Sequence record: OP870144.1
DNA: 64,000 nt
Strand: one strand, 5' to 3'
Source of the DNA: Escherichia phage vB_Eco_F25
Of the stretch, positions 30,435-32,096 are shown one piece after another. The position numbers were made by a program, and so were the translations under genes. Positions within the stretch are counted from its first letter, which is position 1. The number at the start of each line of letters is the position of its first letter. The notes under the pieces are model-generated. The model saw only the letters and a program-made list of their open reading frames with translations, was not told the DNA's origin and ran no database searches.

Positions 30435-31013
30435 TTAATTACCACGGGCTGCATTAGCAACGGCATAAGCGTACTGAACATTAGCGTCCTTAAACGTACC
30501 TTTAGAGGTATCTATTTCTGCCTTAAAGCCGCCTTTAGCCATAACATCGGCAAATTCTTTACGGAAAGCCATTGCATCAAGACCTTTCCATGATGATTTG
30601 TGCTTAGCGAATTCAAGACCAGCGTAGTTGACAGCCTTAGCTAATTTATTATCAATGACCCATTTACCGGCTTTAGGCACAAACTTCGGGCCTTTTTGTT
30701 TAGAGAACAGTTTTAAATTCCAGCGACGAAGATCACTGTCGGCTTTAACAAAAGCTGCGTCTAAGTTACTAGCAACAACATCTTCAATATGAGCAAATTT
30801 AAGTCCGTCAACTTCAATATTTAAATCGGTACGCCAGCGAAGTCCTTCCCAAGCGAAAGCTTTAAAATCGGAAGCTTTTGTAGCTAAGTATCGTTCAATA
30901 GGGGCTGTTTTAGGGTCAAAGCCGTTTCCACCACGATAGTTCCACTCGTCCTTATTAATGCCTTTTGCCTTTACTACAGAAGCTTCAGCAATAAATTCTT
31001 GATACGTTTTCAT
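30435..31013 (-). CDS. ipIII: internal head protein, IPIII-like, with capsid-targeting sequence
   Basis: N-terminal CTS MKTYQEFIAEA (prohead protease motif IAE-A); 192 aa, close to T4 IPIII size. Confidence 0.7.
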   Translation of the reverse strand: MKTYQEFIAEASVVKAKGINKDEWNYRGGNGFDPKTAPIERYLATKASDFKAFAWEGLRWRTDLNIEVDGLKFAHIEDVVASNLDAAFVKADSDLRRWNLKLFSKQKGPKFVPKAGKWVIDNKLAKAVNYAGLEFAKHKSSWKGLDAMAFRKEFADVMAKGGFKAEIDTSKGTFKDANVQYAYAVANAARGN

Positions 31014-31029
31014 TTTTGTTTCCTTGTTT

Positions 31030-31073
31030 GTTTTGATAGAGTAATTATATCATATTAATACTTAAGCGTAAAC
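31030..31073 (-). promoter_or_regulatory. candidate promoter upstream of the IPIII-like gene
   Basis: TTTAC-N18-TATAAT on minus strand. Confidence 0.4.
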
Positions 31074-31076
31074 TGT

Positions 31077-31337
31077 TTAAGCTTTACCGCCAGAAATAAT
31101 TCCGAAGTTGTTAAAATCATATCCAATATCGTCAACATCTACTTTAGGGCTTGCTACAACATAAGCAATTTCACTACGTTTTGCATAGGTGTTTATTTCT
31201 CTACCATCGCCGCCTAGGAAAGAATACCCATTACGTTTTAATGAGACAAAATCTTCGGCATCACCAACGAAAGCTTTAACTTTAAATTTGGGGCCTTTGG
31301 CATCTGCTTCAGCGATAAATTCTTGATACATTTTCAT
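31077..31337 (-). CDS. ipII: internal head protein, IPII-like, with capsid-targeting sequence
   Basis: N-terminal MKMYQEFIAEA CTS; 86 aa. Confidence 0.6.
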   Translation of the reverse strand: MKMYQEFIAEADAKGPKFKVKAFVGDAEDFVSLKRNGYSFLGGDGREINTYAKRSEIAYVVASPKVDVDDIGYDFNNFGIISGGKA

Positions 31338-31343
31338 TTTTCC

Positions 31344-31757
31344 TTAGTAAATTGATTTACCATAGTATTTGTACCAAGTAGGGCGTTGAGCAATTTTTTC
31401 ATCTAAGCGAGCTTGACTTATCGCAATGGACGCTTCGGACGGGACATAATTATTACGAAATTCGACAGGGATGTCGGAAATATCCTGGACAGTCGTGTCC
31501 TTGATTTTGAAACCACGTTTCAAGCATTCAGCGATTAGCTCGATTTGACGTAAACGTAAAAATTCGAGTTTGTCGTAAAAGAATGTTACGTGACCTGTGC
31601 CTAAGATAAATGTTGGAGAGATTTTAAAATCCTTTACACGTTTACCGTTTTGAACATGTTTACGGACTGCACCAAATACGCGTGGTAATTCACGATACTC
31701 AGCCATAAGATGTTGGTCGGTCAGTTCAGAAACAAGTGTTAAATTGATACGAGTCAT
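31344..31757 (-). CDS. denV: endonuclease V (pyrimidine dimer DNA glycosylase)
   Basis: ATG at 31757 ([33 protein letters not shown]), 137 aa; track start is a TTG artefact. Confidence 0.9.
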
Positions 31758-31773
31758 AATTTCCTCCAAGTAG

Positions 31774-31814
31774 TTGATGAATGTATAGTATCAAAGTCCT
31801 TGGAGGAAGTAAAC
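31774..31814 (-). promoter_or_regulatory. T4-type early promoter upstream of denV
   Basis: GTTTAC ... TTGATACTATACATTCATCAAC on minus strand. Confidence 0.5.
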
Positions 31815-32096
31815 ACTATTTTTCTGAAGCGCCTGAAATATATTTTCAAGACGTTGTTTCATTAGCGAGCCGTTCTTAGCGATTTCTTCTGGTTTATCGC
31901 ACATACGCAACAAGGCTTCAAGCTTAACGATATCGCTGGTACGTTCAAATTTGCGAGTATCTATCTTACTAGCAAGTTCAGAAATACGTGCTAATAGACT
32001 TTCAGCTTCAACCAAAGCTGCACCTAGCTTAGTTGCAAATGTGTCAGTAGCTTCGTTAAGAATAGATTCTGATAAAAATTCACTATATGTTTTCAT
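31791..32096 (-). CDS. small protein with capsid-targeting-like N-terminus
   Basis: ATG at 32096 gives [11 protein letters not shown] (LSE-S cleavage-like motif); about 101 aa. Confidence 0.5.

Follow-up and report, generated by a model that had tools for sequence, protein, structure and literature searches.

The window analyzed here, 64,000 nucleotides of DNA whose source appears to be Escherichia phage vB_Eco_F25, a Tequatrovirus, and whose close relatives are all Tevenvirinae (Tequatrovirus or Mosigvirus), carries on its minus strand a compact unit in which three ORFs with the N-terminal tag of T-even internal proteins (Ips; Mullaney & Black 1996; reportedly named by Repoila et al. in 1994) flank denV. 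Two exact matches to the T4 late-promoter consensus (TATAAATA, at 32595-32602 and 32608-32615) stand just upstream of gene e (32093..32581), which encodes the T4-type lysozyme/endolysin (Pfam Phage_lysozyme, E=2.1e-13). The TGA stop of e overlaps the ATG of ORF3 (31791..32096, 101 aa with the ATG at 32096 as its start) as ATGA, and ORF3 is followed by denV (31344..31757), encoding endonuclease V, a pyrimidine-dimer glycosylase (Pfam Pyr_excise, E=3.3e-14; PHROG endonuclease V, E=2.4e-62) that is not itself an internal protein. ORF2 (31077..31337, 86 aa) starts 6 nt past the denV stop, and the unit ends with ORF1 (30435..31013, 192 aa), directly 3' of which is a GC-rich, terminator-like hairpin, AGGCCTATACTTAGGCCT (30415..30432). 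No terminator-like site was found on the minus strand from the late promoters to 30432, and these two putative promoters are likely the source of late transcripts through e, ORF3, denV, ORF2, and ORF1. Two other candidate minus-strand promoters were read from the sequence: GTTTAC-N-GATACTAT, a sigma-70/T4-early-type element before denV (31785..31814), and TTTACG-17-TATAAT, a sigma-70-type site with a TG extension (31044..31072) plus a leader similar to the portable one carried by genes of the ipI locus. A promoter is annotated between denV and the ORF3 homolog in the record of phage Lutter. The first-pass annotation had placed three tagged ORFs around denV, and its account, which gave no strand, agrees with ours in coordinates (stop codons included), motif, and the position relative to denV.

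The shared start of ORF1, ORF2, and ORF3 is MK(T/M)Y(Q/S)EF(I/L)xE, with N-termini MKTYQEFIAEAS in ORF1 and MKMYQEFIAEAD in ORF2 and with the tags MKTYQEFIAE/A and MKMYQEFIAE/A, respectively, where the slash is the predicted cut. A chance model based on the amino acid frequencies of the window, and applied to the 434 ATGs that have 60 or more open codons downstream, predicts that the six-position motif K2, Y/F4, E6, F7, I/L8, and E10 should occur 0.0001 times in the whole window; it was observed 6 times in its strict form and 7 times with a relaxed position 6, an excess of about 10^4-fold over expectation. The total of seven tagged ORFs includes four (ORF4 to ORF7) beyond the three described earlier, all on the minus strand, and the seven genes occupy three hot spots in a region of 10 kb. 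Synteny with T4, RB69, T2, Bas46, and Bas37 identifies two of these locations, next to e/denV and downstream of 57B, as known ip hot spots. The seven mature domains are mutually unrelated: an all-against-all BLASTP without the tags gave nothing below E=0.2. There is no Pfam family for ORF1, ORF2, or ORF3, and PADLOC detected nothing meaningful in the window.

How should these N-termini be read? Residues 4 and 7 of the capsid targeting sequence (CTS) target a protein to the scaffolding core, gp21 uses residues 8 and 10 for tag removal, and ten residues of the CTS are sufficient to load foreign proteins into heads (PMC9026906). The targeting residues Y4 and F7 are present in ORF1, ORF2, and ORF3, likewise I/L8 and E10, and motifs of the gp21 type, (I/L)-x-E, are found as IAE10/A in ORF1 and ORF2 and as LSE10/S plus LNE15/A in ORF3. 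The description of the tag in the first-pass annotation as a targeting signature recognized by the prohead protease was right in that the N-termini are those of the T-even CTS, but it is residues 4 and 7 that target to the core, and the protease only removes the tag through residues 8 and 10 (PMC9026906). Its cleavage motif at residues 8-10 likewise fits ORF1 and ORF2, whereas the motif conserved in the family of ORF3 is (I/L)xE at residues 13-15. The genes for the gp21 protease and the gp22 scaffolding core should, by T4 synteny, lie outside the 64-kb window.

A shared N-terminus might also be the by-product of a portable 5' cassette, comprising promoter, leader, and first codons, that was spread by recombination and left ORF2 and ORF3 as cytoplasmic proteins that are not loaded into the head. 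Ip genes of the ipI locus do begin alike, with one and the same promoter and leader of ~70 nt and almost the same first codons, and this cassette is common to ORF1, ORF5, and ORF6 of the window, T4 ipI, T2 ip5 and ip7, and bas37_0260. However, neither ORF3 nor ORF2 has the cassette, being coupled instead to e and denV, and their tag codons vary at synonymous and variable positions while residues 4, 7, 8, and 10 are kept. In RB69 a compensated double frameshift has scrambled residues 5-12 of the ORF3 homolog and yet Y4, F7, and LNE13-15 are retained, the tag persists across the deep divergence of the ORF2 family, where relatives from other 50%-identity clusters keep a CTS-like N-terminus, and the ten-residue tag loads foreign proteins by itself. 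The cassette explanation is accordingly very improbable, and an origin of the tag by chance or as a purely nucleotide-level feature is rejected by the chance estimate and the comparison of the 5' cassettes.

By sequence comparison ORF1 is the ortholog of Ip3 (phrog_5341, E=2e-117), and the earlier statement that the first ORF resembles IPIII was correct. It is identical over its full length to T4 IPIII (NP_049735) at 183/192 residues (95%, E=7e-139), differs from it at nine aligned positions, and is without the C-terminal Ser. An identical CTS, the same size, a basic charge (mature ORF1 is ~20.2 kDa with a pI of 9.65), and the e-denV neighborhood are common to both. T4 Ip3 specifically inhibits GmrSD-ECOR17, the two-gene type IV restriction system found in E. 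coli ECOR17 (PMC12373910); IPIII is needed on ECOR17, and the tag-less protein is active from the host cytoplasm. The arrangement of the genes is not the same, since in T4 ipIII is found right after e and before ipII and denV, whereas ORF1 is the last gene of the unit, after denV and ORF2. ORF1 also has a promoter and leader of the ipI-locus type, unlike T4 ipIII and ipII, which have a palindromic element upstream instead.

ORF2 resembles T4 IPII (Ip2) in being small, in possessing an 11-residue tag, and in adjoining ipIII and denV, although the order is ipIII-ipII-denV in T4 and denV-ORF2-ipIII in the window. The first-pass annotation had accordingly compared ORF2 with IPII, but that likeness did not survive alignment: only residues 1-11 align, with 10/11 identical, and the mature domain is without similarity. 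A tblastn search with tag-less IPII found no match in the whole window, and no mature domain of IPII or IPI is encoded anywhere in it. Orthology with Ip2 is therefore rejected, and although IPII is an inhibitor of GmrSD-ECOR21/BrxU (PMC12373910), the target of ORF2 cannot be deduced from that of Ip2. Instead, ORF2 (phrog_2667, E=2.2e-20) is 92% identical to RB69ORF125c (NP_861815, 'internal head protein') and has relatives in 217 phage records. A paralogous relationship with Ip7 was rejected although both are found in one PHROG, and an exhaustive profile search enlarged the family modestly, with the FG-GAP-like repeat protein P0029 dismissed as a spurious member. Mature ORF2 is ~8.2 kDa with a pI of ~6.4. 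Its codon differences from relatives are 15 synonymous to 12 nonsynonymous, and frameshifts disrupt the gene in phages Lutter and ECO07P1; this faster evolution and the frameshifts indicate that ORF2 is dispensable in some lineages.

ORF3 belongs to the Ip5 family (phrog_3499, E=1.5e-45). It is 47-51% identical end to end to the Ip5 proteins of T2, RB51, and Bas37 (47% for T2 and Bas37; E=1e-23 to 3e-25), and the alignment contains 37 invariant columns, 26 of which remain in a wider alignment of 11 sequences, with the invariant core KLG.AL.EAE...EIAKNG..MK.RLE. A word-indexed homolog search was shallow for the ORF2 and ORF3 families (5 and 11 proteins, respectively), and it was an alignment-seeded search that recovered the Ip5 branch. 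About 230 phage records match ORF3 at 95-100% identity, reaching ~100% for RB69ORF127c-type proteins, and the GenBank record of RB51 already notes the similarity between Ip5 and RB69ORF127c. The third ORF had been introduced as an extra member of the set, which it is relative to the T4 order e-ipIII-ipII-denV, but it is not new. Ip5 (BBC14757, YP_002854099, and bas37_0261; T2, T6, RB51, and Bas37) is of similar size to ORF3 and also has (I/L)xE at residues 13-15, but ORF3 has an additional canonical LxE at residues 8-10 and a longer tail. Ip5 is encoded downstream of 57B in the 57B/ipI locus. With its place between e and denV and its translational coupling to e, ORF3 represents a relocated paralog type, the RB69ORF127c type, and is not the positional ortholog of Ip5. 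An IPI-like identity was rejected, as the tag alone aligns with IPI* and ORF3 is predicted to be all-helical. RB69 has the same gene order as the window (e, 127c type, denV, and 125c type), but it is without Ip3 downstream, and RB69ORF127c has the scrambled tag whereas ORF3 of the window has a frameshifted tail.

ORF3 shows purifying selection. Its codon differences from relatives are 18 synonymous versus 1 nonsynonymous, and between residues 16 and 84 there are zero nonsynonymous differences from RB69ORF127c (NP_861817). Most members of the Ip5 family retain the (I/L)xE at residues 13-15, the exceptions being the divergent P0021 and P0022, so judged by sequence the gp21 cleavage site of ORF3 is probably the family-conserved LNE15 rather than LSE10. 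The predicted protein would consist of the CTS (residues 1-10), this second gp21 site (residues 13-15), and a three-helix bundle (residues 16 to ~93). The ORF3 model is all-helical with a pLDDT of 71.6, and Foldseek against the PDB returned nothing with E≤0.001, while the AlphaFold2 model of ORF2 (pLDDT 42.7) is unusable; no mechanism can thus be read from structure. Searches of PDB sequences with ORF2 and with ORF3 gave chance-level matches only.

The 3' end of ORF3 is peculiar to this phage. A run of four A residues (31843..31846, minus strand) is found where all relatives have A5, and this loss of 1 nt throws translation out of frame beyond E84 and replaces the last 9 codons, KYISGASEK, and their stop with 17 other codons, so that the new tail overlaps the promoter-like element at 31785..31814. 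Is this a decaying or inactive allele, or a homopolymer sequencing error, such that the 101-aa product is not a functional protein? The deletion does lie in an A5 run, the exact 101-aa ORF3 occurs on one contig only, that of phage vB_Eco_F25, among ~15 billion proteins, the frameshifted allele is absent from IMG/VR, where the canonical allele is present, and residues 94-101 of the new tail have a model pLDDT below 50. However, the family has no invariant residue beyond E84, and the Ip5 proteins end only 2-3 residues past the corresponding position; because the shift begins beyond E84, the conserved core of ORF3 is intact. The remainder of the gene has accumulated synonymous changes only, and we consider loss of function or a sequencing error to be quite improbable.

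With the N-termini taken as genuine targeting sequences, each Ip would be made with a CTS of ~10 N-terminal residues, the aromatic residue 4 and Phe7 of which would bind the protein to the scaffolding core during prohead formation. The gp21 protease would cut after (I/L)-x-Glu, with E10 as the site in ORF1 and ORF2 and E10, E15, or both in ORF3, and free the mature Ip inside the head. From there it would leave with the DNA via the tail and become active in the host cytoplasm ahead of all phage gene expression. ORF2 and ORF3 would then be orphan cargoes, most probably inhibiting, in a host-strain-specific manner, first-line nucleases or other immediate defenses. The view of internal proteins as anti-restriction effectors, expressed in the first-pass annotation, is well founded for Ip1 (Bair 2007), for Ip2 and Ip3 (PMC12373910), and for bas37_0260, another tagged protein, which inhibits McrBC. 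Ip1-3 inhibit GmrSD variants in what has been described as a 'one tag, many cargoes' design (PMC12373910). Like T4 IPI* (the inhibitor of GmrSD-CT596) and bas37_0260, which are injected and directed against type IV restriction, ORF2 and ORF3 consist of a CTS plus a small, unrelated cargo, and by this analogy an anti-defense role is plausible, although there is no sequence similarity past the tag and IPI* is described as two β-sheets flanked by helices, in contrast to the predicted all-helical ORF3.

Packaged proteins could alternatively have a role inside the virion, in scaffolding, in the kinetics of head assembly, or in organizing or neutralizing the condensed DNA. T4 IPIII mutants exhibit slower head assembly and a burst ~40% of normal, internal proteins co-purify with gp22, and DNA phosphates are contacted by internal-protein lysines. 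Moreover, ip4-10, matched here by gene name alone, gave no reproducible new pairs with 15 GmrSD groups (PMC12373910), so anti-GmrSD activity of orphan Ips is not automatic. Yet mature ORF2 and ORF3 are not basic (K+R approximately equal to D+E, pI 6.2-8.1, compared with 9.65 for Ip3), which argues against a simple charge-neutralizing role. Both genes are also patchily distributed, being absent from T4, Bas37, and fD1, with ORF2 pseudogenized in Lutter and ECO07P1 as noted above, a pattern typical of accessory arms-race genes and not of structural ones, and all Ips of known function are anti-restriction proteins. A role confined to the virion is therefore unlikely. It is, in our view, probable that ORF1, ORF2, and ORF3 are genuine Ip genes of a T4-like coliphage, that they belong to a seven-gene repertoire, and that ORF2 and ORF3 are packaged and directed against host defense.

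Which defense might that be? Transposon mutants of Ip5 (bas37_0261) in Bas37 are depleted on CFT073, with a log2FC of -2.09 (adjusted p 0), but not on CFE299, with -0.01, values from a supplementary table that were not validated by its authors, and ORF3 is only 47% identical to this Ip5. The defense list for CFT073 in the HIDEN-SEQ supplement has SanaTA as its sole entry, which gives no pointer to the target of Ip5. A more tentative, and rather doubtful, proposal is that ORF3 and/or ORF2 inhibit a host defense outside the GmrSD and McrBC systems to which Ips have already been matched, a candidate being whatever factor underlies the conditional importance of Ip5 in uropathogenic E. coli CFT073. 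The injected arsenal of T-even phages would in that case reach beyond type IV restriction. For neither the ORF2 nor the ORF3 family did a literature search turn up virion proteomics or N-terminal sequencing; the fPS phage paper contains no proteome, and the T4 omics paper does not report when ip genes are expressed.

ORF1, ORF2, and ORF3 are of an already known kind: ORF1 is the known Ip3, and the families of ORF2 and ORF3 both carry the annotation 'internal head protein' already, that of ORF3 in PHROGs and RefSeq alike, which makes the finding real but ordinary. The window holds a typical, catalogued repertoire, Ip3 with its known target plus six orphan tagged proteins, and not a new kind of system. 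Because injected Ips act before phage gene expression, they help decide which wild E. coli a T-even phage infects, and their effect on host range matters when phages are chosen for therapy. The practical value of the locus is a short list of orphan cargoes to set against the defenses of wild strains: ORF2, ORF3, and especially the un-annotated phrog_2280 pair described next.

The four further tagged ORFs are all found outside the e-denV unit. Two belong to the 57B/ipI locus on the minus strand: Ip7 (40031..40339), which is 99% identical to T2 Ip7, and an Ip9-like internal protein (40400..40672), which is 80% identical to VR7 ip9. The other two, ORF4 and ORF7, are minus-strand members of phrog_2280 ('unknown function'). 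The ORF at 36092..36655 encodes 187 aa with the CTS MKTYAEFLTE/A and has never been annotated as an internal protein, and that at 36781..37254 encodes 157 aa with the CTS-like N-terminus MKSYAQFLNEAVLNE/A and has a putative late promoter, TATAAATA, at 37291-37298. LC-MS/MS of phage fD1 identified the tagged non-T4 proteins g129, g140, and g146 as particle-associated, and g140 is the 85%-identical ortholog of the 36781..37254 ORF. The phrog_2280 pair may represent a new internal-protein family. One phrog_2280 member was scored as essential in phage Bas37.

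In megablast the 30300-32700 region hit 871 phage records, with a top identity of ~98%; nearly all belong to T4-like (Tevenvirinae) phages of Enterobacteriaceae, and by this likeness the genome is T4-like. It is 166,974 bp long, and its nearest phage records are mosaics, 95-96% identical to it. Every gene at the e-denV region lies on the minus strand, in the transcription order nudE, e (32581..32093), ORF3 (32096..31791, 101 aa), denV (31757..31344), ORF2 (31337..31077, 86 aa), ORF1 (31013..30435, 192 aa) and a GC-rich hairpin 3' of ORF1 (30432..30415). By exact-sequence look-up, the products of ORF1-3 are labelled 'hypothetical protein' in the vB_Eco_F25 entries. 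All three have the N-termini described in the first-pass annotation (ORF1 starts MKTYQEFIAEA) and, with Y4, F7, I/L8 and E10 throughout, these are indeed the capsid targeting sequence (CTS) of T-even internal proteins (Ip). On the window's own amino-acid frequencies and the 434 open stretches in it that start with ATG and run to 60 codons or more, the six-position pattern K2, Y/F4, E6, F7, I/L8, E10 is expected 0.0001 times; it was seen six times, which exceeds chance, and a seventh ORF has Gln at position 6. Four tagged ORFs, all on the minus strand, had been overlooked: a 187-aa ORF (36092..36655, MKTYAEFLTE before A) and a 157-aa ORF (36781..37254, MKSYAQFLNEAVLNE before A), both phrog_2280, Ip7 (40031..40339, 99% identical to T2 Ip7) and an Ip9-like gene (40400..40672, 80% identical to VR7 ip9). 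Without their tags, the seven tagged proteins of the window show no significant mutual similarity.

The original observation is thus confirmed, and its interpretation was right in part. What it describes is the well-known T-even internal-protein polymorphism, reportedly treated by Repoila in 1994, and the two orphan families, to which ORF2 and ORF3 belong, already carry the annotation 'internal head protein'. The polymorphism has been described before (PMC3012670; PMC12373910). The gene order is e-ipIII-ipII-denV in T4 and e-127c-denV-125c in RB69, and the window has the RB69-type module plus Ip3. In Bas46 a fourth tagged gene (L015 2115..2429 in its locus extract; 104 aa, MKTYKEFIAES...) separates ORF2 from Ip3, ECO07P1 has ipII after ipIII besides a split ORF2 homologue, fD1 has one tagged gene adjoining e/denV (g129, downstream of denV) and Bas37 has none. 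Because gene content and order differ among T4, RB69, the window, Bas46, Bas37, fD1, Lutter and ECO07P1, the e-denV locus is, on sequence comparison, a variable array of Ip cassettes, and such variable cassettes in T-even phages are known from the literature (PMC9026906; PMC12373910).

What are the proteins behind the tags? ORF1 shares 183 of its 192 residues with T4 IPIII and is by sequence the orthologue of Ip3 (IPIII), so that the IPIII likeness first noticed is borne out; the codon differences from T4 ipIII are 26 synonymous and 10 nonsynonymous. The GmrSD-type type IV restriction systems inhibited by T4 Ip1, Ip2 and Ip3 differ from one protein to the next, and there is no cross-protection (PMC12373910). 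IPIII is needed on ECOR17, and tag-less IPIII expressed in the host also works. Since the activity of Ip3 is known in T4, the function of ORF1 is predicted by orthology. The proposed likeness of ORF2 to IPII was rejected, the alignment being confined to residues 1-11; across the whole window there is no coding sequence for a mature IPII or IPI domain. ORF2 is assigned by homology to the RB69ORF125c family, found in 217 phage records; RefSeq and PHROGs both give it the label 'internal head protein'. An exhaustive profile search added five divergent clusters to this family, each with its own CTS-like N-terminus, and therefore the tag travels with the ORF2 domain over deep divergence. Codon differences between ORF2 and its relatives are 15 synonymous and 12 nonsynonymous. 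In Lutter (L001 2873..3128) and ECO07P1 (L002 2871..3120) the homologue is frameshift-split into fragments, and ORF2 is therefore dispensable in some lineages. Its structure model failed to give a usable fold.

ORF3 is, from end-to-end identities of 47-51% to Ip5 of T2, RB51 and Bas37, an Ip5-family protein. Its presentation as a new member does not hold: ~230 phage records match residues 1-84 at 95-100% (RB69ORF127c at 92%), and the RB51 GenBank record already carries 'similar to Ip5 ... and RB69ORF127c'. Codon differences from relatives are 18 synonymous and 1 nonsynonymous. In the window an A5 run (31843-31846, minus strand) has lost 1 nt, which frameshifts the C-terminus, replacing the last nine codons and adding eight (93 aa to 101 aa), and the new tail reads across a denV promoter-like element. 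The conserved core is intact because the shift starts after E84, the last invariant residue. The deletion is either a homopolymer sequencing error or a real allele; the frameshifted form is unique to vB_Eco_F25 in all collections searched, being a single contig in a 15-billion-protein collection and absent from IMG/VR, where the canonical allele is found. The ORF3 model has no structural neighbour in the PDB.

The notion that the prohead protease recognises the signature and so targets the protein runs together what are two steps: targeting information resides in residues 4 and 7 and processing information in residues 8 and 10, ten residues suffice for head targeting, and propeptides are 10-19 residues long (PMC9026906, a review of Black's work). 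In the Ip5-family alignment, (I/L)xE is not conserved at 8-10 (ATK in T2, LTV in member P0004) and is kept at 13-15 in most members, with P0021 and P0022 as exceptions. In the AlphaFold2 model of ORF3, residues 4-10 form a short helix and 11-15 a floppy linker, with a three-helix bundle following from 16 onward. Because the 13-15 motif is conserved, unlike that at 8-10, and the modelled bundle begins at 16, the first residue of mature ORF3 is probably A16, perhaps reached through an S11 intermediate, and not the one implied by the original motif. In RB69ORF127c (L004 2501..2782), a compensated -1/+1 double frameshift scrambles residues 5-12 (MKTYMNFYQNLSLNE), yet Y4, F7 and LNE13-15 are retained; this natural variant is consistent with the residue roles of 4, 7 and the cleavage motif.

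Two perfect late-promoter boxes (TATAAATA) lie directly upstream of e, the stop codon of e and the ATG of ORF3 overlap as ATGA, ORF2 starts 6 nt downstream of denV, and no terminator-like site was found in the unit ahead of the hairpin; from this layout we infer that late read-through transcription of the whole e-ORF1 unit is plausible. ORF1 has its own sigma-70-type promoter-like site, part of a ~70-nt promoter-leader-tag cassette common to ORF1 and the ipI-locus genes of T4, T2, Bas37 and the window. The cassette, a GTTTAC-N17-GATACTAT promoter with a conserved leader and tag codons, stands ahead of every Ip gene at the 57B/ipI locus; copies lie at 40673..40745, 40340..40410 and 31014..31076 (minus strand) in the window and also in locus extracts L003, L005, L006 and L016. 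Recombination within it might allow cargoes to be swapped. T4 ipII and ipIII are preceded by a palindrome (GAATTGTGA...TCACAATTC) in its place. The cassette is missing from ORF2 and ORF3, whose tag codons show synonymous differences, and therefore their tags are maintained at the protein level and are not merely copied DNA. Matches to the mature domain of the Ip9-like protein (residues 17-90) also occur among ORFs of 44-kb siphoviruses (Kagunavirus) and of ~155-kb Salmonella phages; these matches exclude the tag, which suggests a free-standing accessory domain captured by the CTS.

Support for an anti-defence role of the CTS-protein class is recent and solid. The tagged bas37_0260 of the Bas37 ipI locus inhibits McrBC and, with Ip1-3 active against GmrSD, it makes the proposed anti-defence reading plausible, although ip4-10 did not reproducibly inhibit any of 15 GmrSD groups (PMC12373910). 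The nearest functional data found for ORF2 and ORF3 concern Bas37 Ip5, 47% identical to ORF3, whose transposon mutants were depleted in competition on UPEC CFT073 (log2FC -2.09, adjusted p 0; HIDEN-SEQ supplementary data) and not on CFE299 (log2FC -0.01), a candidate signal from a supplementary table, outside the authors' discussion and validation. The effect for neighbouring bas37_0260 has the opposite sign, which speaks against polarity as the cause of the Ip5 signal. The strongest CFT073-specific defects in that supplement are those of bas37_0239 and bas37_0240, upstream of e (log2FC -3.6 and -6.5); 34244..34852 and 34893..35486 (both minus strand) are their window counterparts by position and same or similar length only. 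The fD1 virion proteome supports the packaging of tagged proteins other than those of T4, with g129, g140 and g146 all particle-associated; no virion proteomics covering the ORF2 or ORF3 families was found in the literature. Basic IPs are often ascribed a DNA-neutralising role; the near-neutral charge of mature ORF2 and ORF3 argues against such a role for these two. Structure models yield no mechanistic lead for either.

Two leads a little beyond the original observation are the most useful: the Ip5/CFT073 signal and the un-annotated phrog_2280 pair, ORF4 and ORF7, which look like an unrecognised internal-protein family. These 187-aa and 157-aa ORFs are in tandem; phrog_2280 is of 'unknown function', and the pair is 'hypothetical' among the public records listed. 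A check of the corresponding T4 regions (62.5-75.5 kb) turned up no homologue of the 187-aa ORF. fD1 g140, 85% identical to the 157-aa ORF, is particle-associated by LC-MS/MS, and bas37_0243, 97% identical to the 187-aa ORF, is classed as 'Essential' in the Bas37 HIDEN-SEQ library, with 1 of 48 TA sites hit.
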